From the IMG/VR virus record IMGVR_UViG_3300042465_005830, positions 1-64,000 of that record: DNA of 64,000 nt; one strand, written 5' to 3'. Within the stretch, counting starts at the first letter, position 1. Each line of letters starts with the position of its first letter. Below, piece by piece: positions 4,201-56,161 of this stretch. The notes under the pieces are model-generated. The model saw only the letters and a program-made list of their open reading frames with translations, was not told the origin of the DNA and did not search any database. The position numbers were made by a program, and so were the translations under genes. This stretch comes from an uncultured virus (IMG/VR IMGVR_UViG_3300042465_005830) (Duplodnaviria; Heunggongvirae; Uroviricota; Caudoviricetes).

Positions 4201-7200
4201 GACAACTGATAGTACAACAAACGGATCAGTACAGTGGGCAAATAGTGGTAATAATGTCTTCGCATTTATAGGTTCTAACACAAACGTTACTGATAGTGGT
4301 GGAAATTTAGAATTTGCAACAGGAGGAACTACCACAAGAATGATGATAAGCTCGTCAGGTAACGTAGGTATTGGAACAACAACTCCAAATGCAAAACTAG
4401 ATGTAAACGGTAATGCAATCATAACAGGATCACTTACAGTAACAGGAAAAATAACAGCAGAAGAATTCCATACAGAATTTGTATCATCTTCTATTATATA
4501 CCAATCAGGTTCAACAAAATTTGGTGATTCATCAGATGATGTAATGAATGTTACAGGATCAATAAAAGTACAAGGAAGTATAACAGGTTCATTATTTGGA
4601 ACTGCTTCTTATGCTATGTTTGCTCAAACACCAACAGTGGCTGGAGCTACCGGTATTCAAGGTGCTACAGGACCTCAAGGAGCTACAGGAGTAATAGGAG
4701 TAAGCGGTGCAACTGGGGTAATCGGAGTAAGTGGTGCAACTGGTTTAACAGGTCCAACAGGTGTATCAGGAGCAACAGGAGTAATCGGAGTATCAGGTGC
4801 TACTGGTCTTACCGGACCAACAGGGGTAAGCGGAGCAACAGGAGTAGTAGGGCCAACAGGAGTAAGCGGTGCTACCGGTGTAATCGGAGTATCTGGGGCA
4901 ACTGGTTTAACAGGTCCGACTGGAGTAAGCGGGGCAACAGGAGTAGTAGGGCCAACAGGTGTATCTGGGGCTACTGGGGTAATCGGAGTATCAGGTGCAA
5001 CAGGTGTAATAGGTGTTAGTGGTGCTACTGGACCAGTAGGAGTAACAGGTGCAACAGGACCAACCTTATCTATAAATGGAAATACAGATAATAGAGTATT
5101 AACAGCTACAGGAGGTTCAACAGTTGATGGTGAAGCAAATTTAACATTTGACGGAACAACATTAGGTACACCAAATGCTTCAATTGCAAACAATCTTCTA
5201 TTAAACGGAAATCACTACATTAGGCAAATAGCCCTACCATCACCAAGTGCAAATGCAGGTGGCGGTAGATGGTTTGTAAGATTATACCAAACCTCACAAG
5301 GAGCTTGTTTTATGGGAGGTAGAATTCGAGTAGGAGGTGCCTGGAACTGGGCAGCTATTATGGGAGTTCTTGAAATAGAGTTTGGTGTATATACATCAAA
5401 TAACAGTACCACAATAGATTCAGGACAGACAAGACAATCAGCAGCAGTAGGAGCAGCAAGAAATAGTTTAAGAATAGGAGATATAGAAGTAGTAGACGGA
5501 TGGGTAGGAGTATATGTATGGTCAGAGAATACAAACTCCCCAGTAGTTCTATTTGACGGATACTGCACTCAGACATTAAATTTATCATCTACTTCATGGG
5601 CTTCAAACAGCTTACCTGCCATAAGTAACACAGAAATCATAGGTGATATTTCAGCTACGACTTTTATAGGAGCTTTATCAGGAAATGCTGCAACAGCTAC
5701 CAATGCAGATACAGTAGACTCATTACACGCTGCTTCTTTTATAAGAAGTGATGCAGATGACGTATTTACAGGAAACCTAACTACCGGAGCAGATAACCAT
5801 ATAACATTTGGACCAAACTCAAGTTGGGGATCTTCTCTAAGAATAGGAGGAAATGGCAGAACTGCTACAGGAACTGAAATGGCAAGTATTGTTACAACAG
5901 ATGGTAACATACACCTAGACGCTGCAAACAGCAATAATGGAATATACTTAAACTACTACGCAGGAACAACAGGAACAGGGTTCGGTAACGGAGCATCAGG
6001 AATTGTTGCTTGGATGGGTTCAGATGGAGATCTATGGAAAGGATCATCAGACAATTCAGGAGATAAGTATTGGCATGCAGGAAATGACGGAGCTTCATCA
6101 GGATTAGATGCAGATTTATTAGATGGAAATCATGCAAGTGCTTTCCAATTAGCACTTACAAATCCAGTAACAGGAACAGGAGCAAATGGACGAGTAGCTT
6201 TTTGGACAGGAACAACTTCTCAATCTTCAAATGCGAATTTCTTTTGGGATAACAGTAATGGAAGGTTAGGTATTGGAACAAGCAGCCCTCAAAGACCATT
6301 AGAAGTAATCTCAGACGGTAATAATTTTGTTTCTGTTGGTGTTAATTCAATAGGTGTTGGTCAATTTGCAGGTATTCATTTTGGATATAGAGAATCTAAC
6401 AACTTATATAGAAAATCTGCAATAGTATTTGAAAGAACAGACCTCACAGCAAATAACGCTCAAGGAAAAATACATATACTAAACGGACCTCAAGGAGATG
6501 CAAATAACGCTACCCTTGCAGATGCTAAGTTAACAATTGCAGAAGACGGTAATGTAGGTATTGGAACTACAAGTCCAACTGCTAAATTACACGTTGCAGA
6601 CACAAACGAAATATTTGATAGTTACGGAAACATCAATGTATTTACAACTAATACAGCAGCGGCTGATATAGGGGGATCTATAGCATTAGGAGGAACAAAT
6701 ACAACAACAGGAACTACTCCATATGTTTTTGGAAAAATTCAAGGTATAAAAGAAGGAAGTGCTAGCAGTTGGAATGGAGCTTTAATATTAGGAACAACTA
6801 ATACCAACTCTTCTATTACGGAGAAGATGCGTATTACTTCGGCAGGTAACGTAGGTATTGGAACAAATAACCCAACAAACAAGTTAGATGTAGTTGGCGG
6901 ATTAGCACATTTTCAACAAAACGCATCCGTAGGAGCAGCATTTAGATGGGGTACGTACGGTACAGCTGTATCACCTGACACTATGTTATGTATGAACCAG
7001 CTATGGAATGGTTCAGGTTGGACAATATTGAATAGCAGTTACGGTACAACTTACATGAATCTAGGTTCTGCAGTAAGTTCTCCTGACATAGACTTTGGTA
7101 CGGGAGGAGCTAATACAGCAGGAACTACCAAAATGATTATCAAGAACAACGGTAACGTAGGTATAGGAGAATCTTCCCCTTCTCAAAAACTTCATGTTAG

Positions 7201-13508: not shown

Positions 13509-14171
13509 ATGATACAGAAAATACAAGCATTTGCAGTAGTAAATAGGGGAACTGCTACAGAAGTAAAAGTAGAGGTACAGAGTAGATTTACTACAAGAGA
13601 CAGAGCAGTAATTTACTACGACCTAAGAGATCCAAACGGAACAACTCCGGCATTTGATTCAAGAACAAATCAATTCGTAACACTCCCTTATGCAATCTTG
13701 TCACGTAACAAAATAGTAGTAACAGGAGAAGACCGTGCATCAGCAATATCAGATGCAAACCTTGCATCAAATATAGTATTTAGAGAGAGAACAGATGTAG
13801 TAAAAGATACAAATACATATAAATATTTTGCAGTTAGAAATAAAATGACTCAAAGAGGACGTAACGGAGGTCGACAAACCGTAGATAAAGGTGCATATAG
13901 GCTGTACGAAAAATCATCAGCAGCAAAAACAGGATTAAATAACTACACTCTTTTAAGTGAATCTCAAGGAGAACCTGTTGATAGAATCCCTATTTACGAC
14001 TTCAAAGGTCGTCTTATTGGATATGAAGATAAGTACTTATCAAGTAATTATGGAGCAGGTATTATAGATATACAGGTAACTATAAGCAACACAGGTGAAA
14101 AAACATATACAGTAGCTTCTAATAGTAGAGGAGATGAATTTTATATTAATTTAATACAACCATATTTATAA
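13509..14171 (+). CDS. hypothetical protein
   Basis: ORF track, 220 aa. Confidence 0.6.
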   Translation: MIQKIQAFAVVNRGTATEVKVEVQSRFTTRDRAVIYYDLRDPNGTTPAFDSRTNQFVTLPYAILSRNKIVVTGEDRASAISDANLASNIVFRERTDVVKDTNTYKYFAVRNKMTQRGRNGGRQTVDKGAYRLYEKSSAAKTGLNNYTLLSESQGEPVDRIPIYDFKGRLIGYEDKYLSSNYGAGIIDIQVTISNTGEKTYTVASNSRGDEFYINLIQPYL

Positions 14172-14180
14172 TAACAAAAC

Positions 14181-14425
14181 GTCCAGATTAAATCGGGTGA
14201 ATTGCTGGAAAGTCCTTAGAGCCTCAAGTACCAAAGCGTAACAATCTTGAGGATTGGAAAATCAGCAGCCAAGCTTAGGATACATCCTAGGAAGGTTCAG
14301 AGACTACTGGAGAGGTAAAGTCCTCTTAATAACCAGCTAGAGCGCCCGACACTTGTAAGAGTGATGATATAGTCCGAACTTTATGGAAACATAAAGATAA
14401 CAAATTGGGAGTTTCGGCTCTGGAT
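14181..14425 (+). ncRNA. group I intron ribozyme (intergenic, apparently permuted)
   Basis: Canonical core elements are present: P (GAATTGCTGGAAA, 14199), Q (AATCAGCAGCCAAG, 14260), R (GAAGGTTCAGAGACTA, 14291) and S (GATATAGTCC, 14366). Helices: P3 TCGGG/CCCGA, P7 GACTA/TAGTC, P8 CACTT/GAGTG, P9 CTTTATG-gaaa-CATAAAG, and P9.0 CGA/TTG placing omega-G at 14408. Confidence 0.88.
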
Positions 14426-46851: not shown

Positions 46852-46940
46852 GAATCGGTTGGTGTAATCGGGAATGAATACCGACAGAGGGTAACACCGC
46901 TTCTAAGCGGGATGAGGGTTCGAATCCCTCACCGATTCCA
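46852..46940 (+). ncRNA. tRNA-like RNA with expanded D-loop and aberrant anticodon arm
   Basis: Acceptor GAATCGGT/ACCGATTC; T-arm GAGGG-TTCGAAT-CCCTC; D-loop insert; CCGC-TTCTAA-GCGG. Confidence 0.55.
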
Positions 46941-46943
46941 AAC

Positions 46944-47040
46944 AGTCAGGAGACCATTGGTTGGTGGCACCTCCCCAAGGTTTAGTTGAAATATACTATT
47001 TATGGCAAAGCTGGAGCAGGTTCGAATCCTGTCCTGACTA
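46944..47040 (+). ncRNA. tRNA-like RNA (acceptor + T arm only)
   Basis: AGTCAGG/CCTGACT and GCAGG-TTCGAAT-CCTGT; non-canonical interior. Confidence 0.5.
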
Positions 47041-47081
47041 CAAAATTAAACTACTGTTCTTTGAAATAAAAATTATAAATT

Positions 47082-47393
47082 ATGGAACAAATTTTAGCAT
47101 TTGTTTTAGGGGTTGGTATAGCTCTCCTTGCATGGGGGGTTGTGGTAGCGTTTAGAACAGCAAGCAAAGTAGCAAAGCAAGAAAAAGAGTTAACTGAAAT
47201 ACAGAACTGGATTTCTAGAAACGATGAATTAGTAAATCGTAGAATTGATCAGGAAGTTGATCGAGTAAACAAACTACACTCAGACTGTATTTCCTATACA
47301 GACTCCAGAGTAGACAAATTAGAACAAAAACTTACGTCAATTAACAATGATGGATGTGAGCCAGTTAAGAAAAAAAAATTAATAAACGGATAA
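47082..47393 (+). CDS. membrane-anchored coiled-coil protein
   Basis: N-terminal TM segment plus coiled coil. Confidence 0.6.
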   Translation: MEQILAFVLGVGIALLAWGVVVAFRTASKVAKQEKELTEIQNWISRNDELVNRRIDQEVDRVNKLHSDCISYTDSRVDKLEQKLTSINNDGCEPVKKKKLING

Positions 47394-47533
47394 ATTAATC
47401 CAAAGAACAGTAGTTGTTTTATAAAATAAAAGTTCGTATATTTATAATATATAAAAACACAAAGAAAAAAAATTAAAATATAGTTGGACTGGAATGGAAA
47501 AGTTCATATATTTATATATAGAAAGCAAATAAA

Positions 47534-47677
47534 ATGAAAGCAATTCAAAACATACATCAACAACTTAGCACAGCGACAAGAGCATTGAATACGTGGTCGG
47601 ATTCGTTATGTGGGGATGTCATTTTAGGCTTTGCTGGATATAATAACGAACCGAAACAAGGAGGTACCGGGGTATGA
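47534..47677 (+). CDS. putative leader peptide (47 aa, contains all 20 amino acids)
   Basis: MKAIQNIHQQLSTATRALNTWSDSLCGDVILGFAGYNNEPKQGGTGV; lies after a promoter-like motif and before a terminator. Confidence 0.55.
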   Translation: MKAIQNIHQQLSTATRALNTWSDSLCGDVILGFAGYNNEPKQGGTGV

Positions 47678-47713
47678 TATGATATAGTATAAAATACATA
47701 TTATAAGTAAGGT

Positions 47714-47743
47714 ACCCGGATCAAAAAAAGATTCGGGTTTTTT
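47714..47743 (+). terminator. intrinsic terminator / putative attenuator
   Basis: ACCCGGATC-aaaaaaa-GATTCGGGT followed by TTTTT. Confidence 0.75.
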
Positions 47744-47836
47744 ATTAAAAAAAAGTTGCTAGAAAGAAAAAAAAATCGTATCTTTAGGTACAGAAATAAA
47801 GAATAAGAGTTCATTGACATATTGGATAAAGCATAG

Positions 47837-47920
47837 GGAAGGCATCCGGCTGGATCAGGAGCCACTCTTGAAAAGTGGTAGCAGGTAATACTGTTGTGGG
47901 TTCGAGTCCCACGTCTTCCT
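47837..47920 (+). tRNA. tRNA-Ser(TGA)
   Basis: CCACT-CTTGAAA-AGTGG, long variable arm, TTCGA T-loop. Confidence 0.85.
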
Positions 47921-47926
47921 CAATAT

Positions 47927-47998
47927 TGGCTTATAGTGTAACGGTTAGCACAAAACACTTTGACTGTTTTAGTCTAGGTTCGAATCCTAGTAAGCCAA
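47927..47998 (+). tRNA. tRNA-Gln(TTG)
   Basis: AAACA-CTTTGAC-TGTTT cloverleaf. Confidence 0.9.
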
Positions 47999-48213
47999 CA
48001 AATAATTGTAAGTAATGAAAGCCTATCCCAACACTTGATCAGTAAGTAGGACGGTTAGTAAAGAAAGCATTATCAGTAAGTAGTGGAGAAATCCATATGG
48101 AGAAAACGATGCAAGACATGAGTACAGGGAATCAGCCCGATGGCTTTGCTTACGGAAATTACAGTAGTTTTGAGATGGGCGAATTCTACTTTAAAAAAAT
48201 AATCCCTTCACCA

Positions 48214-48289
48214 CTGGTAGTAGAGGAGTCCGGTTTATCTCGCTGGCCTTGGACGCTAGAGCACGCAGGTTCGAATCCTGCCTACCAGA
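48214..48289 (+). tRNA. tRNA-Pro(TGG)
   Basis: CTGGC-CTTGGAC-GCTAG. Confidence 0.88.
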
Positions 48290-48296
48290 CGAGAAG

Positions 48297-48495
48297 AGAC
48301 TGTTACTAATTCATAGAAGACCACGCGAGTAAGTCCTCGAAGCGTAGAATTAGATTTGCCTTCGAAGCTCATGTGGACGGGCACCGGGCTTTTAACTCGG
48401 GGGTAGCTGGTTCGAGGCCAGCCGGGGGTACAAAAGAAGACTGTTACTAATTCATAGAAGGGCTTTTAGACCGAAGCGTAGAATTAGATTTGCCT
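48297..48495 (+). repeat. two copies of a bipartite spacer element preceding tRNA-Lys and tRNA-Val
   Basis: AGACTGTTACTAATTCATAGAAG at 48297 and 48438; CGAAGCGTAGAATTAGATTTGCCT at 48338 and 48472. Confidence 0.85.
48358..48430 (+). tRNA. tRNA-Lys(TTT)
   Basis: CCGGG-CTTTTAA-CTCGG. Confidence 0.8.
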
Positions 48496-48562
48496 CGTTG
48501 GCGTAATGGTAGCGTATTTGTTTTACATGCAAAGGGCGATAGTTCGATTCTATCACGAGGTA
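48492..48562 (+). tRNA. tRNA-Val(TAC)
   Basis: TTTGT-TTTACAT-GCAAA. Confidence 0.85.
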
Positions 48563-48661
48563 CAAAATTCTGGGTAGCAAGTAAAATACCGGCAAGTATT
48601 TTCAAGACTATATGGAGTCTATTATGAGTTAGTAATTTGCCGATGAAAGCTTGTTATAGTT

Positions 48662-48733
48662 TCGTTCTTGGTAGATTGGTGACTACGCTGCCCGTGGAGG
48701 GTGGAGAAGCAGGTTCGATTCCTGTAGAATGAT
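48662..48733 (+). tRNA. degenerate tRNA (His/Pro-like, anticodon loop lacks U33)
   Basis: Acceptor TCGTTCT/AGAATGA and T-arm intact; loop CGTGGAG. Confidence 0.5.
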
Positions 48734-48739
48734 CAAATT

Positions 48740-48822
48740 GGGATGCTTCAGTCACTGGTGTGATAAGCGGTCTGTAAAATCGTTGCTGTAAGAAGCGTGT
48801 GGTTCGATTCCACAGTATCCCA
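48740..48822 (+). tRNA. tRNA-Tyr(GTA)
   Basis: GCGGT-CTGTAAA-ATCGT, long variable arm. Confidence 0.8.
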
Positions 48823-48827
48823 CAATT

Positions 48828-48900
48828 GGACCTTTTGTATAGCTGGTGCGTACGCTAGTCTGAAGAACTAGAGGAACAGGTTCGATTCCTGTAGGGTCCA
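48828..48900 (+). tRNA. tRNA-Phe(GAA)
   Basis: CTAGT-CTGAAGA-ACTAG. Confidence 0.88.
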
Positions 48901-48905
48901 CAACC

Positions 48906-48977
48906 GGGTTTGTCGTATAAAGGTTATTACGGATGACTGTTAATCATCTTATGGAGGTTCGATTCCTCCCAGGCCCG
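48906..48977 (+). tRNA. tRNA-Asn(GTT)
   Basis: GATGA-CTGTTAA-TCATC. Confidence 0.88.
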
Positions 48978-48986
48978 CAATTAAAT

Positions 48987-49130
48987 GCTCGTATAACAGG
49001 TAGTGTGGTAGCTCCCCAACCTGAAGTGGGATAACGTGACGGTCAATCGTAAAAGCTCAAGGTACGTAACAAGTAGCAGTTGGTTGGAGTAAGTGACTTA
49101 TCGAGGTTGGTTCGATTCCAGCTATGAGCA
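48987..49130 (+). ncRNA. 144-nt tRNA-like RNA with large non-canonical interior
   Basis: Acceptor GCTCGTA/TATGAGC+A; T-arm GTTGG-TTCGATT-CCAGC. Confidence 0.55.
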
Positions 49131-49137
49131 CAAAAAT

Positions 49138-49211
49138 AGGTAATTAGCTCAATTGGTTAGAGCACTCGCCTGATACGTGAGAGGTTATAGGTTCGATTCC
49201 TATATTACCTA
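49138..49211 (+). tRNA. tRNA-Ile(GAT)
   Basis: CTCGC-CTGATAC-GTGAG. Confidence 0.9.
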
Positions 49212-49216
49212 CAAAG

Positions 49217-49299
49217 GGAAAGTAAATCAACTAGGAGTTGAGACCGCTTGCTAAGCGTATCGTGCCTTCGGGCATGGGGTTCGATACCTCTGCTTTCCT
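49217..49299 (+). tRNA. tRNA-Ser(GCT)
   Basis: TTGCTAA loop; long variable arm TGCC-TTCG-GGCA. Confidence 0.75.
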
Positions 49300-49505
49300 C
49301 AAAAAAACCTCCTCACCGTCCTCACAACGCATCTAAGGAATGCAGGAGAAGGAAGTACGAACGGGGCCCCGTGGTAAGACACTTTAAAATCAGATAGTAC
49401 AGCGATAGGGTAAGAGGTTCCCTATCAACTACCGACTTGATCTAGGATCGAGAATATCTCATAAGTATTCTCAGACAAGAGCGTAACTTGTAGTCGGTAC
49501 AATAT

Positions 49506-49579
49506 GGTGATTGTAGCTGAATTGGTAAAGCGTCTGATTGTGGTTCAGGAGATTGTGGGTTCGAGTCCCATCTTTCACA
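49506..49579 (+). tRNA. tRNA-His(GTG)
   Basis: TCTGA-TTGTGGT-TCAGG; encoded G-1; two U-U pairs in the acceptor stem. Confidence 0.8.
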
Positions 49580-49586
49580 CAAACAT

Positions 49587-49666
49587 ATCCCTGTGGTGAA
49601 AATGGTAAACACACCAGGCTTAAAACTTGGCGCTCAGGCTTGCTGGTTCGACTCCAGTCAGGGGTA
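49587..49666 (+). tRNA. tRNA-Leu(TAA)
   Basis: CCAGG-CTTAAAA-CTTGG. Confidence 0.85.
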
Positions 49667-49742
49667 CAAAGAGAGAGATGTAGGACTAATTGCCTACCCT
49701 GTTGCATAGCAGAAAGTAGCTTAAATAAAGCCTCTCTTATTT

Positions 49743-49814
49743 GGTCTTATAGTTTAATTGGAAAAACTTATCGCTACGAACGATAGAACGTAGGTTCGAC
49801 TCCTACTAAGACCT
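49743..49814 (+). tRNA. tRNA-Arg(ACG)
   Basis: TATCG-CTACGAA-CGATA. Confidence 0.88.
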
Positions 49815-49819
49815 CAACT

Positions 49820-49891
49820 GCCCGTATAGTTTAATCGGAAGAACTAAACGCTTCTAACGTTTCAGTCCTGGTTCAAGTCCAGGTATGGGTT
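49820..49891 (+). tRNA. tRNA-Arg(TCT)
   Basis: AAACG-CTTCTAA-CGTTT. Confidence 0.88.
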
Positions 49892-49963
49892 CAAAAAAAT
49901 CGTCCCTCATAAGGGTTAAGTAGATGAGGCTAATCTAGGTAGGTTAAGCGATACCCTACAAAT

Positions 49964-50034
49964 GCGTTCCACAGACAAGGTGTCGGTCAGGTCTCCAAAA
50001 CCTCGACGGCTGGGTTCGATTCCTAGGGTTCGCG
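49964..50034 (+). tRNA. tRNA-Trp(CCA), non-canonical D arm
   Basis: AGGT-CTCCAAA-ACCT; T-arm CTGGG-TTCGATT-CCTAG. Confidence 0.7.
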
Positions 50035-50066
50035 CAAATATATTGTTTCATTAAAAAAAGTAAATC

Positions 50067-50573
50067 ATGAGTAAGTATCAAAAAGCACTAGTAGTAGATG
50101 CCAGCTTTATCGCAAGATCAGTTATAAGTACAGAAAGAGCTTTCGTGATTTCTTATAAAGGTAATGCTGAAGTAATAGCTGAACATCCAGAAACATTTAA
50201 TCTGTATAACCCAGAATTAACAATTTATAAACCTTCTATTATTAGAGTATTTACATATGTAAAACATAATATTCAAAAAGTAGCTCTAACAAGAGAGAAT
50301 ATTTATAGAAGAGATAATTACGAATGTGTTTACTGCGGATGTTCAAATCAAAGAACACTAACACTTGACCATGTTATACCTCAATCAAAAGGAGGAAAAG
50401 ATGCTTGGGATAATTTAGTAACAGCCTGCAGACCATGTAATCATGAGAAAGCAGATTTAACATTAGAGGAATACGGTAAGGAAATTCCAGAACCAAAAAG
50501 ACCTCACTATTTAATGTTAATGAGAACTATGACACACATACCAAAGGAATGGGAAACTTTTTTATTTTTTTAG
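50067..50573 (+). CDS. HNH endonuclease (McrA-like) within the tRNA array
   Basis: RDNYECVYCG ... TLDHVIPQSKGG..WDNLVTACRPCNHEK. Confidence 0.92.
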   Translation: MSKYQKALVVDASFIARSVISTERAFVISYKGNAEVIAEHPETFNLYNPELTIYKPSIIRVFTYVKHNIQKVALTRENIYRRDNYECVYCGCSNQRTLTLDHVIPQSKGGKDAWDNLVTACRPCNHEKADLTLEEYGKEIPEPKRPHYLMLMRTMTHIPKEWETFLFF

Positions 50574-50700
50574 TAAAAAAAGTTGCTAGAAAGAAATAAA
50601 GTTCATATCTTTAAGTATAAGAAAGAAGATAAAACATCTACTACGTAACGCACGATCGACGACACGTACTGTCTGGCAGGTCAGGCTAGATGTTTAAATT

Positions 50701-50771
50701 GGTCGGTTGGCCGAATGGTTAGGCGCAGGATTGCAAACTCTGTAACGTTGGTTCGATTCCAACACCGACCT
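50701..50771 (+). tRNA. tRNA-Cys(GCA)
   Basis: TTGCAAA loop; U73 discriminator. Confidence 0.85.
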
Positions 50772-50866
50772 CATTGAAGGTTCGACCCTCTACCAAATGT
50801 GTTACACCCACAGATGGACAACGAGAGGGAGCTACCGATTGATAAGTGGCCGCACATGCGGCAAAT

Positions 50867-50940
50867 GCCCGAGTGGTGGAATTGGCAGACACGCTAGACT
50901 TAGGATCTAGATATTGAGGGTTCGAGTCCCTCCTTGGGTA
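50867..50940 (+). tRNA. tRNA-Leu(TAG) with short variable loop
   Basis: CTAGA-CTTAGGA-TCTAG; Leu-type D-loop but only a 5-nt variable region. Confidence 0.8.
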
Positions 50941-50945
50941 CAAAA

Positions 50946-51016
50946 TTAGAGTTAGCTTATAAAGGTTAAAGCAGCAGGGGCTAACCTGCAGAACGGATTC
51001 ATAGCCCGGCTCTAAT
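50946..51016 (+). pseudogene. degenerate tRNA-like element
   Basis: Acceptor TTAGAGT/GCTCTAA; GCAGG-GGCTAA-CCTGC 6-nt loop; eroded T arm. Confidence 0.45.
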
Positions 51017-51135
51017 TAAAATATAAACTATTATGCGTAAAAAGTTAGATAGATGTGCAGATAAGATTGGGAAGCCGAGTTTACGGTGAAAGGCTGCCAC
51101 TGATGACTCCCAATAGCCTCTAATAGTTTAAATTT

Positions 51136-51209
51136 GCTTCTGACGCACAAATGGTGGTGCACTGGATTTGTAACCCAGAATAGAGTCGGTTCGATCCCGT
51201 CCAGAAGCT
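51136..51209 (+). tRNA. tRNA-Thr(TGT)
   Basis: CTGG..TTTGTAA..CCAG. Confidence 0.8.
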
Positions 51210-51214
51210 CAACT

Positions 51215-51286
51215 GCGGCTATCGTATAATGGTCATTACTTTAGACTTCCAATCTAAAGATGAGAGTTCGATTCTCTCTAGCCGCT
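51215..51286 (+). tRNA. tRNA-Gly(TCC)
   Basis: TTAGA-CTTCCAA-TCTAA; U73. Confidence 0.9.
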
Positions 51287-51292
51287 CAAATT

Positions 51293-51364
51293 GCTGCGTT
51301 AGTGAAGGGGTAAACACGTATCACTTTCTATGATAAGGCACGGGTTCGAATCCCGTACGCAGTA
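51293..51364 (+). tRNA. tRNA-Glu(TTC)
   Basis: TATCA-CTTTCTA-TGATA. Confidence 0.85.
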
Positions 51365-51439
51365 CAGAGCTCTTTATTCGTATTAGGAGGAATAGCTTAA
51401 TCAGCTTCTAGATTTGACGACTCGGAAAGACGAGTAACT

Positions 51440-51511
51440 GGGGCTATAGTGAAATTGGCATCACGATAGATTTGCATTCTGTTATTCCGGGTTCGAATCC
51501 CGGTAGCTCCA
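51440..51511 (+). tRNA. tRNA-Ala(TGC)
   Basis: GGGGCTA/TAGCTCC with G3-U70; TTTGCAT loop. Confidence 0.9.
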
Positions 51512-51565
51512 CTATACAGCTGTATAACAGCTGGTGGTTGACAGCTCGGAACAGACGGGCATTTT

Positions 51566-51638
51566 GGTCTGGAGGTGTTATTGGTAACACGTCGCACTGT
51601 CACTGCGAAGATTGCGGGTTCGATCCCCGTGCAGACCG
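51566..51638 (+). tRNA. tRNA-Asp(GTC)
   Basis: TCGCA-CTGTCAC-TGCGA; G73. Confidence 0.85.
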
Positions 51639-51647
51639 CTTATAAAT

Positions 51648-51717
51648 TGCGTTAAGGTGTAAAGGTTGCATCTAGGTCTCATAAGCCTGGGGGGTGGTTC
51701 GAGTCCACGCTACGCTA
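51648..51717 (+). tRNA. tRNA-Met(CAT), possibly initiator-like
   Basis: TAGGT-CTCATAA-GCCTG; mismatched acceptor end. Confidence 0.65.
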
Positions 51718-51723
51718 CAAATT

Positions 51724-51797
51724 GTCCTTTTAGCTCAGCCGGTTAGAGCAGCTCGCTCATAACGAGAAGGTCACAGGTTCGAATCCTGTATAGGACA
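51724..51797 (+). tRNA. tRNA-Met/Ile2(CAT)
   Basis: CTCG-CTCATAA-CGAG; canonical D and T arms. Confidence 0.85.
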
Positions 51798-51864
51798 CTA
51801 AAGTTTATCCAATATGAGAGCAATTCCCTCATCTCCAATGTAGTACTTGACTAGTTCAAGTATT

Positions 51865-52098: not shown

Positions 52099-52177
52099 GA
52101 AATATTCGGAGAAAGGTTTGGAAACCTGAACCTTTCTTCTTATATTAGAGTATAAATCAAAATTAAAAAGTTATCAT

Positions 52178-53089
52178 ATGAAAAATTCGTTATCTACAAA
52201 AGGGTTATCAATGTCTCAAGCACAATCAATCTCAAACTTGTGCAATCAAAGAGCAAAAGAAATTTCTAATAAATTAGCAGATGTTAATAATGTTTCTAAA
52301 ACATTAGTAATTGGCTCAGAGACCTATACTGAGACTCAGGGTAATCCAATGCCTGCAAATACAGTAGAACTGTTAACAGAAAAAGCAAGACTATCTGCTA
52401 CACAAGCCTTCTTGATGGAGAACATCAAAGCAAAAGACGAATTAATCAAAGAGATCCAATTTGAGGACTTTGACTATACTATCCTAGCTCCAGAAAGACC
52501 TAAAACTGCAACTAAAGAATTACCTTCCTTAATAGATGAGGAATGGGGATGGTCTCAATTGACTACAGCAGAGTATAACGAATACTTAGAAGCAGAAGCT
52601 TACGCTTCACATATTGGACAATTTATCCACAAAGGAGGTAAATTAGATAAATTAAGAAGTGAATTACCTACCATTAAGACTTTAGAGTTTATGGAAATCG
52701 AAGTAGGAAAGAAAACTCCTATGAAAGTTTCTATTCACCACACCTCAGAAGGGTTACTTGCAATTCACGAAGAGTTAGCTAGTCTTCATAGAAACTATGA
52801 GCAAAAAGTTAACTACTTTAAATCTAAAGTAAAGAACTCAGTAACAACTGAAAATGCTCGTATTGCTAATGAAAGAGCAGAAATTCAAGCTGAATTGAAT
52901 GAGATAAACGGCAAACAGGATGCTGACTACAATGCAGGGTTGGAGAAATGGAGAGCTGATTTTAGAAAAGCTTCTAATGAATTTGAAGCAAAACGTCAAG
53001 AAAGAATCAAAGAAGCTGCTAATATGAAGATTGATATTGATTCTAGATTTCAGCCAGTGGTTGATATGTTCTTAAAACAGTTACAATAA
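52178..53089 (+). CDS. helical/coiled-coil hypothetical protein (303 aa)
   Basis: ORF with its own promoter-like motif; followed by a structured RNA. Confidence 0.7.
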   Translation: MKNSLSTKGLSMSQAQSISNLCNQRAKEISNKLADVNNVSKTLVIGSETYTETQGNPMPANTVELLTEKARLSATQAFLMENIKAKDELIKEIQFEDFDYTILAPERPKTATKELPSLIDEEWGWSQLTTAEYNEYLEAEAYASHIGQFIHKGGKLDKLRSELPTIKTLEFMEIEVGKKTPMKVSIHHTSEGLLAIHEELASLHRNYEQKVNYFKSKVKNSVTTENARIANERAEIQAELNEINGKQDADYNAGLEKWRADFRKASNEFEAKRQERIKEAANMKIDIDSRFQPVVDMFLKQLQ

Positions 53090-53092
53090 TTT

Positions 53093-53392
53093 GGTGCTAA
53101 GGAGGTAAGCACAAGCCGATCCTCCAAAGCTTTATGCTGGGATAGTGGAGTTTTAAATATAAAACTATATGATAGCAAATCAACTACATTTAATGGCCAG
53201 GTGCCCTTTAACACTCGCTTCCTTACAAACTTTACAAAACTGAGATAGAACTCAACCGTTAGACAGGTCTGCTCGAAAGAGGTAATTGGCTAACAACTTT
53301 GAGACTTAGTTCTTGTCCTTGCCTTTGTGGTAAGGAAGGTCTTTGACCTTGATTTTGCATTCGACATCGTCTATATGCTTTACATCCCAGCA
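53093..53392 (+). ncRNA. unidentified ~300-nt structured RNA
   Basis: Nested long-range helices TGCTGGGAT/ATCCCAGCA, CTTCCTTAC/GTAAGGAAG and AACTGAG/CTTAGTT; hexamer array. Confidence 0.6.
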
Positions 53393-53424
53393 ACAATTTT
53401 TTTAAAAATAATTAACAAAAAGCT

Positions 53425-53460
53425 TGCTTCGGCAGGCTTTTATTCGTATATTTAGGTATA
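53425..53460 (+). promoter_or_regulatory. representative recurrent promoter (TTG ... TTCGTATATTTAG), Bacteroidota sigma-A-like
   Basis: Near-identical motif upstream of many genes (e.g. ~17983, 43534, 46488, 47433, 47503, 47776, 50602, 56198, 57393, 59589, 60587, 63729). Confidence 0.6.
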
Positions 53461-53471
53461 ATTAATAAGAC

Positions 53472-54122
53472 ATGAAACTAGTATTAGAAAAAGGACAACA
53501 ATTGTTCTTTACATCAGACACACATTACTCACATTCAAACATTTGCAGTGCTACTACAAACTGGACTGAGTCTTCAAACTTGACAAGAGAATTCGATTCA
53601 CTTGCCTCTATGAATAAGACTTTGGTGGATAACATCAACAACATGGTTGGTGAAGATGATATTCTAATTCACTTAGGGGATTTTAGCTTTGGAGGATTTG
53701 ATAAGATTGAAGAATTCAGAAGTCAAATCAACTGTAAAAACATTCACTTGGTACTTGGAAACCATGATCACCACATTGAAAGAAACAAGGAAGGTATTCA
53801 AAGACTATTTTCTTCAGTACAGCAATACTTGAGATTAGAAGTAAGAAGACCAATCAACAAAGCAACAACTGAAAAGTTTACTTTTGTTTGTATGCACTAT
53901 CCAATTGCGTCATGGCATGATATGAACATCGGAGTAATTCACTTACATGGACACGTTCATTTACCGGCAGATATAAGAGTAGCAGAGGGTAAAGCAATGG
54001 ATGTTGGAGTAGATGGAAACGGTTTAGAGCCAATTTCATTAGACGAAGTATTATCGTTGATGGAAAAACAGCCAATAAGAAAGTTAGAGTTGCCAAAGGA
54101 TCATCATGAGAAAAGAATCTAA
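53472..54122 (+). CDS. calcineurin-like metallophosphoesterase
   Basis: SDTHYSH, HLGDF, GNHD, HYP, HGHVH, DVGVD. Confidence 0.88.
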   Translation: MKLVLEKGQQLFFTSDTHYSHSNICSATTNWTESSNLTREFDSLASMNKTLVDNINNMVGEDDILIHLGDFSFGGFDKIEEFRSQINCKNIHLVLGNHDHHIERNKEGIQRLFSSVQQYLRLEVRRPINKATTEKFTFVCMHYPIASWHDMNIGVIHLHGHVHLPADIRVAEGKAMDVGVDGNGLEPISLDEVLSLMEKQPIRKLELPKDHHEKRI

Positions 54123-54375
54123 TATAAAATATGGAATAATTTTTACAAGTGCTTTAATTATAGAGATTTGTTCAACATTCTATATTCGCTTTACAGCAGA
54201 AGCTAATACAATAGGAATGGTATTTTTTGCTTTTATTGGTCCATTTCTAGCTTTACCGTTTGCAGGTTATATGGTAGAATCTAAATTCTGGAATGAACGT
54301 ATAAAAATGGCCTTTGCTTTAGCTTTAGGTTACGCCATAGGAGCATTAGTAGTAAATAATATTATAAAAATATAA
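54106..54375 (+). CDS. small membrane protein
   Basis: Three hydrophobic segments. Confidence 0.55.
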   Translation: MRKESNIKYGIIFTSALIIEICSTFYIRFTAEANTIGMVFFAFIGPFLALPFAGYMVESKFWNERIKMAFALALGYAIGALVVNNIIKI

Positions 54376-54378
54376 AAT

Positions 54379-54519
54379 ATGAAAACAACACTACTAATAG
54401 CCTCAGCAATAAGTACAGGTTTGGCTGTAGGAGCAACATGGACAGGAGAAATTGATAGAGCTACATTCTACTTAGTATGGGCATTTTATTTAAAGTATTT
54501 ATCTGATAAAAGAGAATAG
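54379..54519 (+). CDS. small membrane protein (46 aa)
   Basis: Read manually: MKTTLLIASAISTGLAVGATW... Confidence 0.45.
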   Translation: MKTTLLIASAISTGLAVGATWTGEIDRATFYLVWAFYLKYLSDKRE

Positions 54520-54520
54520 T

Positions 54521-54922
54521 ATGAAAGAGTTATTTTTATTAAGAGGATTACCTGGAGCAGGTAAATCAACATTTGCAAATTGTATAGGGGGTTCTTGGTA
54601 TGAAGCAGATCATTTCTTTCTTAATGAGAAAGGAGAATATGAATTCAATGCTTCAAATTTAAAAGCAGCTCATGAATGGTGTAGACAAGTAGTTGAAGAG
54701 TCAATGTCAAATTGGAACGGAATAAATCCTGATGAAAAAATTATAGTATCAAATACATTCACTCAGGAATGGGAAATGCAACCATACTATGATCTAGCAG
54801 AAAAATACGGATACAGAGTTTATTCTTTAATTGTAGAAAATAGACATGGAGGAGTAAATGAGCATGGAGTCCCAGAAGAAAAATTAGTACAAATGAAAAA
54901 TAGATTCGAGGTACAGTTATGA
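54521..54922 (+). CDS. P-loop kinase (polynucleotide-kinase-like, AAA_33)
   Basis: LRGLPGAGKST, EADHFF, VSNTF, HGVPEE. Confidence 0.8.
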   Translation: MKELFLLRGLPGAGKSTFANCIGGSWYEADHFFLNEKGEYEFNASNLKAAHEWCRQVVEESMSNWNGINPDEKIIVSNTFTQEWEMQPYYDLAEKYGYRVYSLIVENRHGGVNEHGVPEEKLVQMKNRFEVQL

Positions 54923-55030
54923 AAAAAGAATGCAAACATGACTTCAGAGAATTTTGGAAAATAAATTATCGAGGGACAAGGTTAGTATTGAAAGAAGTTA
55001 AATGTATTATGTGTAACAAAATTAAAGAAA

Positions 55031-56161
55031 ATGGAAAATCAAAATAGTGTTTGCTTTGTAGCAACAATCAACGAAATTAAAGCAATCCCAAATGCTGACA
55101 ACATTGAACAAGTAATTGTTGGAGGATGGAATGCTATCACTAAAAAAGGTGAATTTAAAGAAGGTGACTTAACAGTTATTGCAACTACAGATGCAGTAAT
55201 TCCAGAAGCATTTTCTGAAAAAATGGGAGTTACTTCTTACCTAAGAAAAGGAGGTAGAGTAAGAACTGTAAAATTAAGAGGAGTTTATTCTGAATGTCTA
55301 ATCATCCCAACTAAATACATTCCAGGATATGGAGACAGATACCAAGATGGAGATGACATGATGGAAAAATTTGGTATTGTAAAATATGAACCACCAGTTA
55401 AACAAATTCAATTGGCTTCAGGTAGAAAGATTAAGTGGAGAGACAATCAAAACTTCCACATCTACTACAAATTCCCGAATCTTAAAAACGTAGCAGGAAT
55501 GTTCACTGAAGAAGATATGGTTCAAATCACTAGAAAGATTCATGGTACAAATGCTAGATACGGTATTGTAAAGAAAGGTAAGTTATCATTCTGGGATAAA
55601 GTAAAAAAATTCTTTAGACTTGCTGATGAGTGGATTGATTATGAATACATTTATGGATCACATAACTGTGAAAAAGGAAGTGACTCACAAGGATTTTACT
55701 CAACTGATGTTTGGAGAACAATAGCTGAAAAATATAGTATTAAAGAAAAACTTTGGGACCTATGTGATATTCTTGGAACTTATCATGTAGGTGATGGAAT
55801 TATTCTTTACGGAGAAATTTATGGAGCCGGTATTCAAAAGAACTATGAATATGGTTTGAAAGATATTGAGTTCGTAGGATTTGATTTAAAAATGGATAAC
55901 GAATATCTCTCAACAGATTCAGCTCAATATGAAATAATCAATATGTTACACTTACCTCACGTAGAAGTACTTTACACCGGAACTTGGAATCAAGAAGTTC
56001 AAGACATGTTTGTATTTAATAACTTCATTGAAGGAACAAAAGTACCACATGAAGGAATTGTAATCAAACATACCTCAGGTGATAGAAAGAAAGTAGCAAA
56101 GGTAATCAATCCAGACTATTTGATCTACGGAGAGAAGCATGATGTAGGAGATTCACATTAA
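55031..56161 (+). CDS. ATP-dependent RNA ligase (DRB0094/Rnl2-like) with N-terminal OB fold
   Basis: IPNADNIE, KLRGVYSE, motif I KIHGTN, YGEIYG, FDL, EGIVIK, KVINPDY. Confidence 0.88.
   Translation: MENQNSVCFVATINEIKAIPNADNIEQVIVGGWNAITKKGEFKEGDLTVIATTDAVIPEAFSEKMGVTSYLRKGGRVRTVKLRGVYSECLIIPTKYIPGYGDRYQDGDDMMEKFGIVKYEPPVKQIQLASGRKIKWRDNQNFHIYYKFPNLKNVAGMFTEEDMVQITRKIHGTNARYGIVKKGKLSFWDKVKKFFRLADEWIDYEYIYGSHNCEKGSDSQGFYSTDVWRTIAEKYSIKEKLWDLCDILGTYHVGDGIILYGEIYGAGIQKNYEYGLKDIEFVGFDLKMDNEYLSTDSAQYEIINMLHLPHVEVLYTGTWNQEVQDMFVFNNFIEGTKVPHEGIVIKHTSGDRKKVAKVINPDYLIYGEKHDVGDSH

Follow-up and report, generated by a model that had tools for sequence, protein, structure and literature searches.

In the analysed stretch of 64,000 nt from an uncultured virus (positions 1 to 64,000 of IMG/VR record IMGVR_UViG_3300042465_005830, hereafter the window), positions 53088..53400 of the + strand are very probably the gene of a stable structured non-coding RNA that belongs to a new family. 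The RNA is about 310 nt long, with approximate ends that are based on full-length conservation, covariation and the ends of contigs from RNA libraries. It lies immediately behind a protein-coding gene (52178..53089, + strand), called gene X here, whose 303-aa product (protein X) matches no family and always has the RNA downstream of it. An initial annotation, made from the window sequence alone, had proposed a structured RNA of about 300 nt coupled to this upstream gene, and both parts of that proposal were borne out by comparison with relatives. The element family comprised 156 related phage loci with 83 distinct sequences, which were aligned with MAFFT; the carriers of the RNA and gene X are large uncultured freshwater phages.

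Structure and sequence conservation of the RNA

RNAalifold, applied to the alignment of the 83 sequences, returned 22 pairs, 21 of which showed compensatory changes. Together with helices recognised by eye and from averaged pair probabilities, these pairs gave a tested set of 37 pairs in nine helices, in which 88.8% of the cells were paired, compared with 74.2% in 500 shuffles (none of the 500 as high) and 35-55% when the partners were slid. Compensatory changes on both sides were found in 36 of the 37 tested pairs, and the covariation score was 0.508, versus 0.238 in shuffles. Folding energy alone decided little, since the scores of the two strands were close (z = -2.93 for the + strand, with 1 of 100 shuffles equally good, and z = -2.34 for the - strand, which was nearly as good); the comparative evidence was decisive. 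Moreover, G.U cells outnumbered A.C cells across the alignment (247 versus 88), an excess which points to an RNA of the + strand, that is, the strand of gene X.

From the 5' end, the RNA begins with a hairpin (53096..53130, as all features of the RNA on the + strand) composed of an outer stem, a small inner stem GC/GC with an ANAA loop, and a conserved apical region UAAGCACAAGCCGAU; all ten of its pairs showed compensatory changes. The initial annotation had read the stem GGAGG/CCTCC as one half of a possible H-type pseudoknot. This stem was retained as part of the longer hairpin, but the pseudoknot was not, as its other half, GTGCT/AGCAC, was 65.6% paired and did not covary above the level of shuffles. 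Two other candidate pairings, a pseudoknot GAGAC/GUCUU and a pairing of the 5' hairpin loop with CGCUU, were rejected because of uncompensated substitutions in variants.

A long-range helix of some 15-20 bp closes the domain that follows, with its 5' strand (UGCUGGGA, GUGGAG) at 53135..53150 and its 3' strand (CUUUAC, UCCCAGCA) at 53378..53392, the G.U pairs of which fit the + strand only. This helix, initially described as the pair TGCTGGGAT/ATCCCAGCA, was recovered, with 8 or more long-range pairs, when the minimum-energy structures of the relatives were computed (81 of 83, versus 10 of 83 shuffled sequences). Its sequences were wholly different among clades (for example UGCUGGGAUAGUGGAG, CCUAGUGAUAAAGA and CGUUCAACAGUACGUU), each being accompanied by its complement. 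The nested helix proposed as CTTCCTTAC/GTAAGGAAG was likewise confirmed, with five core pairs that were 99.8% paired and all covarying; its strands are located at 53218..53226 (CUUCCUUAC) and 53330..53338 (GUAAGGAAG), the latter between two blocks of hexamers. A helix GUUAG/CUAAC around a hairpin of variable length (53258..53294) was 95% paired, with covariation in 5 of its 5 pairs. The near-invariant hairpin UGAG-AUAGAA-CUCA (helix 8, 53241..53254) was 88% paired and took the form UAGG/CCUA in one relative (L039); this local hairpin is a rival to the candidate pairing AACTGAG/CTTAGTT of the initial annotation, which was 84.6% paired but almost invariant. Weaker than the other helices was an inner one (helix 6) formed by AAUCA at 53178..53182 and UGAUU at 53350..53354, the 3' strand lying within the second hexamer block; it was 78% paired, with changes on both sides in 4 of its 5 pairs.

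The two hexamer blocks flank the 3' strand of the CUUCC helix. Block 1 (UUAG UUCUUG UCCUUG CCUUUG) extends over 53306..53327 and block 2 (GUCUUUG ACCUUG AUUUUG CAUUCG ACAUCG UCUAU) over 53339..53374. The hexamers described by the initial annotation are thus present in the window, and their repeats (UUUG) are real; the strict 6-nt phase attributed to them was found within the blocks but is not conserved across the two, the 12-nt gap that keeps both blocks in phase being present in 35 of 83 relatives and one base longer in 48. The motif TTGNNNTTGNNNTTG occurred six times in the window, versus 1.07 expected, with two of the six copies within the element. In block 2, conservation power was 0.95 at period 6, 0.91 at period 2 and 0.20 at period 3, while block 1 had no period-6 peak (0.49, similar to periods 2 and 7). 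The region follows a pattern of three conserved bases (UUG) and then three variable ones. In some relatives, each block is a copy of one 25-nt module, GACUUAG UUUUUG UUUUUG CCUUUG, in direct orientation; in one of them (L105), the copies are 84% alike, with 42 nt between them. Family-wide, the two modules shared a median of 17 of 25 bases, versus 11.8 in shuffled controls, with imperfect anchoring.

No specific partner strand was found for block 1 (mean duplex energy -2.2 kcal/mol, z 0.17), and the 3' part of block 2 paired weakly (z -0.53, compared with -2.26 for a control helix). The mean unpaired probability of the hexamers was 0.43-0.44, versus 0.07 for the neighbouring helix strand, and the hexamers were among the best conserved bases of the RNA. 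Good conservation without a partner strand suggests recognition by sequence, in which the hexamers would provide contacts for a protein, another RNA or tertiary structure. The earlier suggestion that they are repeated binding sites is plausible. The alternative suggestion, that they are a template, was not supported, as neither a reverse transcriptase nor a polymerase was found among the 76 neighbouring ORFs (open reading frames) scanned with Pfam, out of 106 downstream ORFs from 29 loci, the shorter ones having been dropped.

Judging from the sequences of the relatives, the element is neither protein-coding nor a readthrough signal. As stated in the initial annotation, no ORF of at least 60 aa covers 53093-53392, where only three short ORFs overlap (54, 45 and 42 aa), and the gene X ORF ends in a TAA that is followed, in the window, by about 50 codons without a further in-frame stop. 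These short ORFs and open codons, together with hexamers that look codon-like on first view, could indicate that one of the strands encodes a small protein, or that stop-codon readthrough extends gene X at its C-terminal end, the latter having also been put forward initially. Such a coding role deserves hardly any credence: the best of the six frames was open in only 35 of the 83 sequences over 95 nt of the hexamer region, single-base indels were observed inside this region, and the alternation of three conserved and three variable bases is not that of third-position wobble. In addition, the frame past the stop was open for a median of 6.5 codons, reaching at least 40 codons in only 3 of 62 relatives, and other small genes were located between the stop and the RNA in 16 of 73 loci.

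Linkage with gene X and properties of protein X

A search of IMG/VR with protein X yielded 80 loci, with 48-100% identity. The RNA was found downstream and on the same strand in all 73 gene X loci with at least 1100 nt of flank, and an iterated nhmmer profile detected the full-length element within 600 nt after the stop of the homologue in 59 of 62 distinct downstream stretches. The regions downstream of the homologues, whose comparison the initial annotation had recommended, thus carry the conserved structure. The element started at most 12 nt from the stop codon in 57 of the 73 loci and 73-742 nt from it in the other 16, in which small extra ORFs intervene. Inserted ORFs between gene X and the RNA were observed, for instance, at L035 3918-4205 and L038 3914-4653, and include a conserved 95-aa protein starting with MNEVV.

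The linkage was also apparent from the RNA side. A search with a degenerate 25-nt motif gave 92 viral stretches, of which 79 were true according to nhmmer, and gene X was located directly upstream in 66 of these; the remaining 13 corresponded to two weak partial matches, two loci located at the end of a contig and nine whose flank is limited to about 300 nt. One copy of the element was present per locus in 165 loci, none of which had two. Among bacterial and archaeal genomes (596 Gb), 85 pattern matches were obtained, but only one contig, binned in a metagenome-assembled genome (L233), carried both the element and gene X. In GenBank phages, tblastn revealed no relative of protein X, and no DNA match to gene X or the RNA was found. 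By these counts, the RNA is strictly co-inherited with gene X.

Two observations concern the sequence of gene X itself. In one homologue (L051 3439-3441), an in-frame TAA occupies the otherwise invariant Gln148 codon (CAA); it could have arisen by nonsense mutation or in assembly, or the stop may be suppressed, and the gene's own stop is also TAA. In the window, the coding sequence AAGCAGAAGCUUA near 52590 (codons of EAEAYA) resembles the apical motif of the 5' hairpin, AAGCACAAGCCGA, probably by chance; the additional copies of this loop motif that were examined, from the window and L050, fall in coding sequence.

Among the candidates scored, the protein X family comprised 2623 proteins at E ≤0.001, corresponding to 807 clusters at 50% identity, all of about 300 aa and all named hypothetical. 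Six histidines were invariant, and the motifs QAFLMENIKAKD, EAEAYASHIGQFIHK and HRxYEQxVNYFKAKVKN were conserved. Searches against Pfam, PHROGs, NCBIfam, PADLOC and PDB sequences gave nothing significant, and in the ESM Atlas only unnamed clusters scoring ≤0.80 were retrieved. The AlphaFold2 model of protein X (predicted local distance difference test 86.7, predicted template modelling score 0.77) consists of a helical bundle with two beta-hairpins, and the label of coiled coil given to the protein initially does not fit this predicted fold. The best match of Foldseek in PDB had an E value of 0.064 and a template modelling (TM) score of 0.19, the sole match in BFVD was a member of the same family, and VIA-align wide returned generic helix bundles, with a best Z of 8.0 at a root-mean-square deviation of 8.2 Å.

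Transcription, genomic neighbourhood and possible function

The expression data came from four metatranscriptome runs of four studies (23 runs listed), in which contigs with at least 88% likeness were considered. The RNA was present in 4 of the 4 runs. Cover was zero in all four at 52100-52146 and at 53463-53480; it started in the bin 52147-52193 and stopped near 53400-53415, ahead of a terminator-like hairpin at 53418-53445. These limits fit a unit that runs from the promoter-like site to the terminator, and they speak against plain DNA carry-over. Short contigs began at 53087/53088 in runs X3 and X4, and contig ends were found at 53396-53400. A 284-nt contig with a depth of 330 spans the RNA of a relative to the 3' end (53398), its 5' limit not being listed, and one contig of run X1 carried the ORF, an insert of 290 nt and the RNA. 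A sigma-70-like site at 53061-53090 was considered as the RNA's own promoter and rejected, as the RNA contigs begin already at 53087/53088 and the hexamers of the site are codons of the conserved protein end.

One contig of run X4 (334 nt, depth 57) joins 53396, via four letters, back to 53087, and is thus head-to-tail or circular. At the DNA level, no tandem copies that could account for such a joint were found in 165 loci, and a two-motif pattern of the joint, suited only to sequences closely related to the window, had 1 match in viral contigs and 34 in metagenome contigs, none being the element. This one contig from one run may reflect a circular RNA, library chemistry or assembly.

In the window, gene X is preceded by an array of 23 tRNA genes (46853..51798, + strand; ARAGORN), which ends 380 nt ahead of it, and then by a terminator-like hairpin (52108-52139) and the promoter-like site, both within 52108..52146 on the + strand. 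Behind the RNA, an intrinsic-terminator-like hairpin with a U run (53418..53445, + strand), present as a hairpin in the computed fold, marks the end of the unit formed by gene X and the RNA; its counterpart in relatives sits behind extra genes. A complete RNA healing-and-sealing set follows right behind the RNA at 53472-56161, comprising, on the + strand, a metallophosphoesterase (Pfam Metallophos, 53472-54122), a P-loop kinase (Pfam AAA_33, 54521-54922) and an RNA ligase (Pfam RNA_ligase, PF09414, with an N-terminal PHA02142 OB-fold; 55031-56161). The record that holds the window is a 76-kb uncultured viral contig, about 47% complete, and the closest named relatives of the window are the 160-kb Flavobacterium immuto myoviruses. 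In these phages, the tRNAs pass straight to the phosphoesterase, without gene X or the RNA element, and the DNA match to the window runs from 53400 onwards only.

Among the relatives, tRNA genes were located within 3 kb of the RNA in 22 of the 35 loci scanned, and upstream on the same strand in 19. Typically, the pair of gene X and RNA occupies the 3' edge of a phage tRNA array, often ahead of RNA healing-and-sealing genes. In the Pfam scan, domains of RNA-repair type were found downstream in 12 of the 29 loci, namely metallophosphoesterase, AAA_33 kinase, RNA ligase, the HAD domain of 'Swiss army knife' repair proteins, PNKP phosphatase and TROVE; using tblastn with the three repair enzymes of the window, at least one was found in 25 of 64 loci. 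A TROVE/Ro60 gene begins about 35 nt behind the RNA in five loci of one jumbo-phage clade (L050, L052, L054, L055 and L070). PMC7824862 discusses the Ro60 proteins of phages, which are rare, together with RNA repair and the provision of tRNAs by phages.

We propose that one transcript, starting at a promoter near 52150 and ending at the terminator (53418-53445), contains both gene X and the RNA, and that the RNA would then be released from it and build up as a discrete species of about 310 nt. As its inheritance and neighbourhood suggest, it would work in trans with protein X, probably as a ribonucleoprotein, and the two may help to keep tRNAs supplied and repaired when the host attacks them, a field that they would share with the neighbouring genes; the hexamer blocks would be the likeliest contact sites for a protein or another RNA. 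We consider it rather probable that the RNA and protein X form a functional unit. Their role in a conflict over tRNAs and RNA repair is a tentative proposal, and the reading as a whole, in which protein X and a stable RNA jointly take part in a conflict over damage to tRNA and RNA, is put forward with similar reserve.

Several points weigh against this proposal. The argument that protein X binds the RNA comes from the linkage of the genes, and strict linkage could also reflect an RNA that needs the gene X promoter or acts in cis on its mRNA. Protein X is mildly acidic (median isoelectric point 6.05, net charge -5), which does not favour a general RNA binder, and no known RNA-binding fold was recognised in it by Foldseek or VIA-align. 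Within 3 kb of the RNA, tRNAs were absent in 13 of the 35 loci, and repair genes followed the RNA in well under half of the loci scanned for them, so that the neighbourhood argument is statistical rather than strict. The RNA evidence consists of assembled contigs, from which neither the strand nor the true ends of a transcript can be read. In runs X3 and X4, contig depth was 23-330 on the RNA versus 2-11 on the ORF, a contrast that is a hint, being confounded at 88% likeness, where the better-conserved RNA recruits more contigs of relatives, and being based on one depth figure per contig; no such contrast was observed in runs X1 and X5.

Instead of acting in trans, the RNA could be a cis-acting 3' element of the gene X transcript, such as an mRNA stabiliser, a processing signal, or a sensor controlling entry into the downstream repair genes. 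Its constant position 3' of a same-strand gene, at most 12 nt from the stop in 57 of 73 loci, would agree with this, as would the terminator behind it in the window and the X1 contig that unites the ORF, the 290-nt insert and the RNA. However, a length of about 310 nt, nine helices that covary and loops that do not change far exceed the needs of a stabiliser; the RNA remained intact despite genes inserted on either side, and is thus tied to neither the stop codon nor the terminator; the fold showed no pairing of the RNA with the terminator as an alternative; and RNA-only contigs were much deeper than ORF contigs in two runs, with the confounding described above. We regard a cis element as unlikely, and place at a comparable level a decoy or sponge that would be independent of protein X, an abundant, perhaps circular RNA whose UUUG(A) repeats soak up a host factor. 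Candidate targets would be an RNase acting on tRNA anticodon loops or on U-rich RNA, and an RNA-binding protein of the host; the neighbouring repair enzymes would re-seal the RNA. UUUGA corresponds, by our own reasoning, to positions 33-37 of the anticodon loop of tRNA-Gln(UUG) and to the complement of a tRNA-Leu loop, but this resemblance spans just five bases, and there is no known target. Repeated, sequence-conserved motifs without a partner strand, arranged in two 25-nt modules, would agree with a decoy, and the adjoining ligase, kinase and phosphoesterase are in line with it. The contig joining 53396 to 53087 also favours a decoy, given that none of the 165 DNA loci has two copies and that 0 of the 35 DNA pattern matches were the element, although this head-to-tail form is one contig from one run that library preparation or assembly could produce. 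A decoy also leaves the strict linkage with gene X without explanation.

A self-processing RNA, either a new ribozyme or an intron-like element that excises itself and has its ends joined by the neighbouring repair enzymes, is more doubtful still. The abrupt onset of conservation 1-12 nt after whatever gene is upstream, the contig starts at 53087/53088, the head-to-tail contig and the adjoining healing-and-sealing enzymes could all be accommodated by it; nevertheless, no ribozyme or intron of Rfam matched even at E ≤10, although group I introns were detected in the window and in L060, excision would yield no sensible exon joint, and these data contain no cleavage chemistry. Equally speculative is a combination in which protein X, or the RNA itself, would cut a circular RNA from the gene X transcript, with closure by the phosphoesterase, kinase and ligase. 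Its UUUG(A) arrays would mimic or pair with tRNA anticodon loops, and the circle would be a nuclease-resistant decoy or a tRNA-binding platform that shields translation from host tRNA-cutting defences; if true, such a circular decoy RNA would be the bacteriophage counterpart of eukaryotic circular sponge RNAs. Finally, conserved inverted repeats and a reverse strand that also folds (z = -2.34) might be expected of a DNA-level element, such as an origin or a packaging or recombination site with hairpins in single-stranded DNA. This is scarcely credible in view of the G.U excess in favour of a + strand RNA (247 versus 88 A.C), the discrete contigs in four RNA libraries with uncovered flanks, and the placement within a transcription unit between a promoter-like site and a terminator.

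Relation to known RNAs and further features of the loci

The element was searched against the 4227 models of Rfam 15, which include GOLLD, ROOL, OLE, Y RNA/YrlA, group I and II introns, small ribozymes, T-box, rsmX/CsrB and tmRNA. No match at the gathering threshold was found for 53093-53392, the best one at E ≤10 being rsmX, with 20.7 bits versus a threshold of 56. In 20 related loci, no family was found on the element, although tRNAs, GOLLD and a group I intron were detected beside it. A full-text literature search gave no description of the RNA or of protein X. Five motif strings of the element were absent from the searchable supplement of PMC10690425, a catalogue of 10,006 viral RNA candidates with lengths of 29-151 nt; as the alignments of this catalogue are not searchable, a fragment may be listed there. 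The element is a phage-borne large structured RNA of the tRNA/RNA-repair neighbourhood; its distinguishing marks are the obligate partner gene, the modules of UUUG repeats and, possibly, a circular form.

The closest working analogies would be Y RNA/Ro60 in rsr-rtcB operons and OLE RNA with the Oap proteins, although the element appears to be a member of neither. The OLE RNA gene adjoins the gene of a partner protein, and this tie to a dedicated protein gene of an otherwise unknown family resembles the pair formed by the RNA and gene X. OLE is also a large, highly conserved structured RNA for which a ribonucleoprotein function is assumed (PMC12054373). However, OLE is about 600 nt long and belongs to Bacillota, whereas the element is about 310 nt long, phage-borne and located behind the protein gene, with no sequence or Rfam match to OLE; protein X, moreover, is soluble-looking and mildly acidic, unlike the OLE partner.

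With Y RNAs (YrlA, RF02553), the element shares a long closing stem and the situation of a structured RNA by a protein gene in an RNA-repair/tRNA neighbourhood. Y RNAs are described as 80-130 nt long, with a long terminal stem and a 5' GNCGAA(N)G motif contacting Ro60, and YrlA as having a tRNA-like domain (PMC4201824). GCCGAU/GCUGAU in the 5' hairpin resembles this motif in part, agreeing in the window with 5 of the 6 positions of GNCGAA; the third base varies between C and U. In contrast to Y RNAs, the element is about 310 nt long, and no tRNA-like part (T and D arms) was found in it by ARAGORN or by the tRNA and YrlA models of Rfam. Protein X is unrelated to TROVE, according to Pfam and the fold search, and a TROVE/Ro60 gene accompanied the RNA in 5 of the 80 protein-found loci, all of one clade, with none within 3 kb in the other loci.

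GOLLD and ROOL are likewise large structured RNAs of phages and prophages, often situated beside tRNA genes (PMC12286853), and one locus (L060) carries both the element and GOLLD. The element is smaller and matched neither model. GOLLD and ROOL are not known to have an obligate protein-gene partner. The tRNA cluster of phage T4 contains stable non-tRNA RNAs of unknown function (species 1 and 2, rnaC and rnaD), about 120-140 nt long and situated between tRNA genes; the element differs from them in being about 310 nt long, in following both the array and a protein gene, and in having, in the window, a promoter-like site and a terminator of its own. Short conserved motifs every 5-6 nt in single-stranded stretches are also typical of the trp leader bound by TRAP and of CsrB/RsmX bound by CsrA, but UUUG is neither (G/U)AG nor GGA, and the element has two blocks of three to five repeats, not 11. 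A TRAP-type leader was rejected, as the triplets are UUG, with a few UAG, and not about 11 (G/U)AG spaced 2-3 nt apart, and no TRAP- or CsrA-like protein was found among the scanned neighbours. The combination of a possible circle and an encoded ligase recalls archaeal C/D box small RNAs, which are circularised by an ATP-dependent RNA ligase (PMC9014305, PMC2577357); here, however, the circle is one contig, there are no C/D boxes, and the ligase is of the N-terminal OB-fold type. Two further candidates were discarded. The element is not a group I intron, as it does not match RF00028, follows a stop codon and moves with inserted genes; nor is it a type III toxin-antitoxin RNA (toxI-like, with repeats of about 36 nt by a ToxN-like gene), as only a 6-nt periodicity and two 25-nt modules were observed and protein X had no PADLOC, Pfam or ToxN-like fold match.

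Large structured RNAs of unassigned function are rare, and RNase P, OLE, GOLLD, ROOL and raiA have each taught new RNA biology. For the present RNA, three handles are available that most such RNAs do not offer, namely an obligate partner protein with a new fold (807 clusters), a neighbourhood of tRNA supply and RNA repair, and traces in environmental RNA libraries, including a possible circle. Phages and hosts are in conflict over tRNA supply and RNA repair, a field in which Ro60 alone has known RNA partners. With its modest length, the RNA is amenable to chemical probing and cryo-EM (cryogenic electron microscopy), and the operon, of about 1.3 kb, is clonable. A model of the family would also cover about 300 nt that have been left blank in the annotation of many large freshwater phage genomes.

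Several other features of the loci were recorded. In the jumbo-phage clade, with contigs of 117-434 kb, the TROVE/Ro60-like gene encodes 526 aa at L050 4333-5910, and no YrlA-type Y RNA was detected by Rfam in the two TROVE-clade loci scanned (L050, L060 set). In L060, a group I intron (4274-4461), tRNAs and a full GOLLD RNA are located within 2 kb behind the RNA, the intron coming just behind it; the GOLLD RNA (5528-5942) scored 306 bits and lies 1.3 kb downstream of the element, and a tRNA with the anticodon UUA, of ochre-suppressor type, is present just ahead of gene X (2843-2920). ARAGORN also reported tRNA-like genes whose anticodon loops are unusual (L053 1925-2017; L021 2073-2148), one anticodon having four bases ('taca') and the other two ('ct'). 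In L027, a heme oxygenase and a ferredoxin-dependent bilin reductase, auxiliary genes of a phage pigment pathway, are adjacent at 5127-6411, downstream of the module, and in L063 an AAA+/clamp-loader-like gene (4233-6578) is split by an intein with a TnsA-like endonuclease part. In the window itself, the relatives of the RNA ligase in GenBank phages are distant only (<30% identity), a group I intron (Rfam RF00028, 96.9 bits) is present at 14132-14396, and an HNH endonuclease ORF of 168 aa lies at 50067-50573, within the array of 23 tRNA genes.

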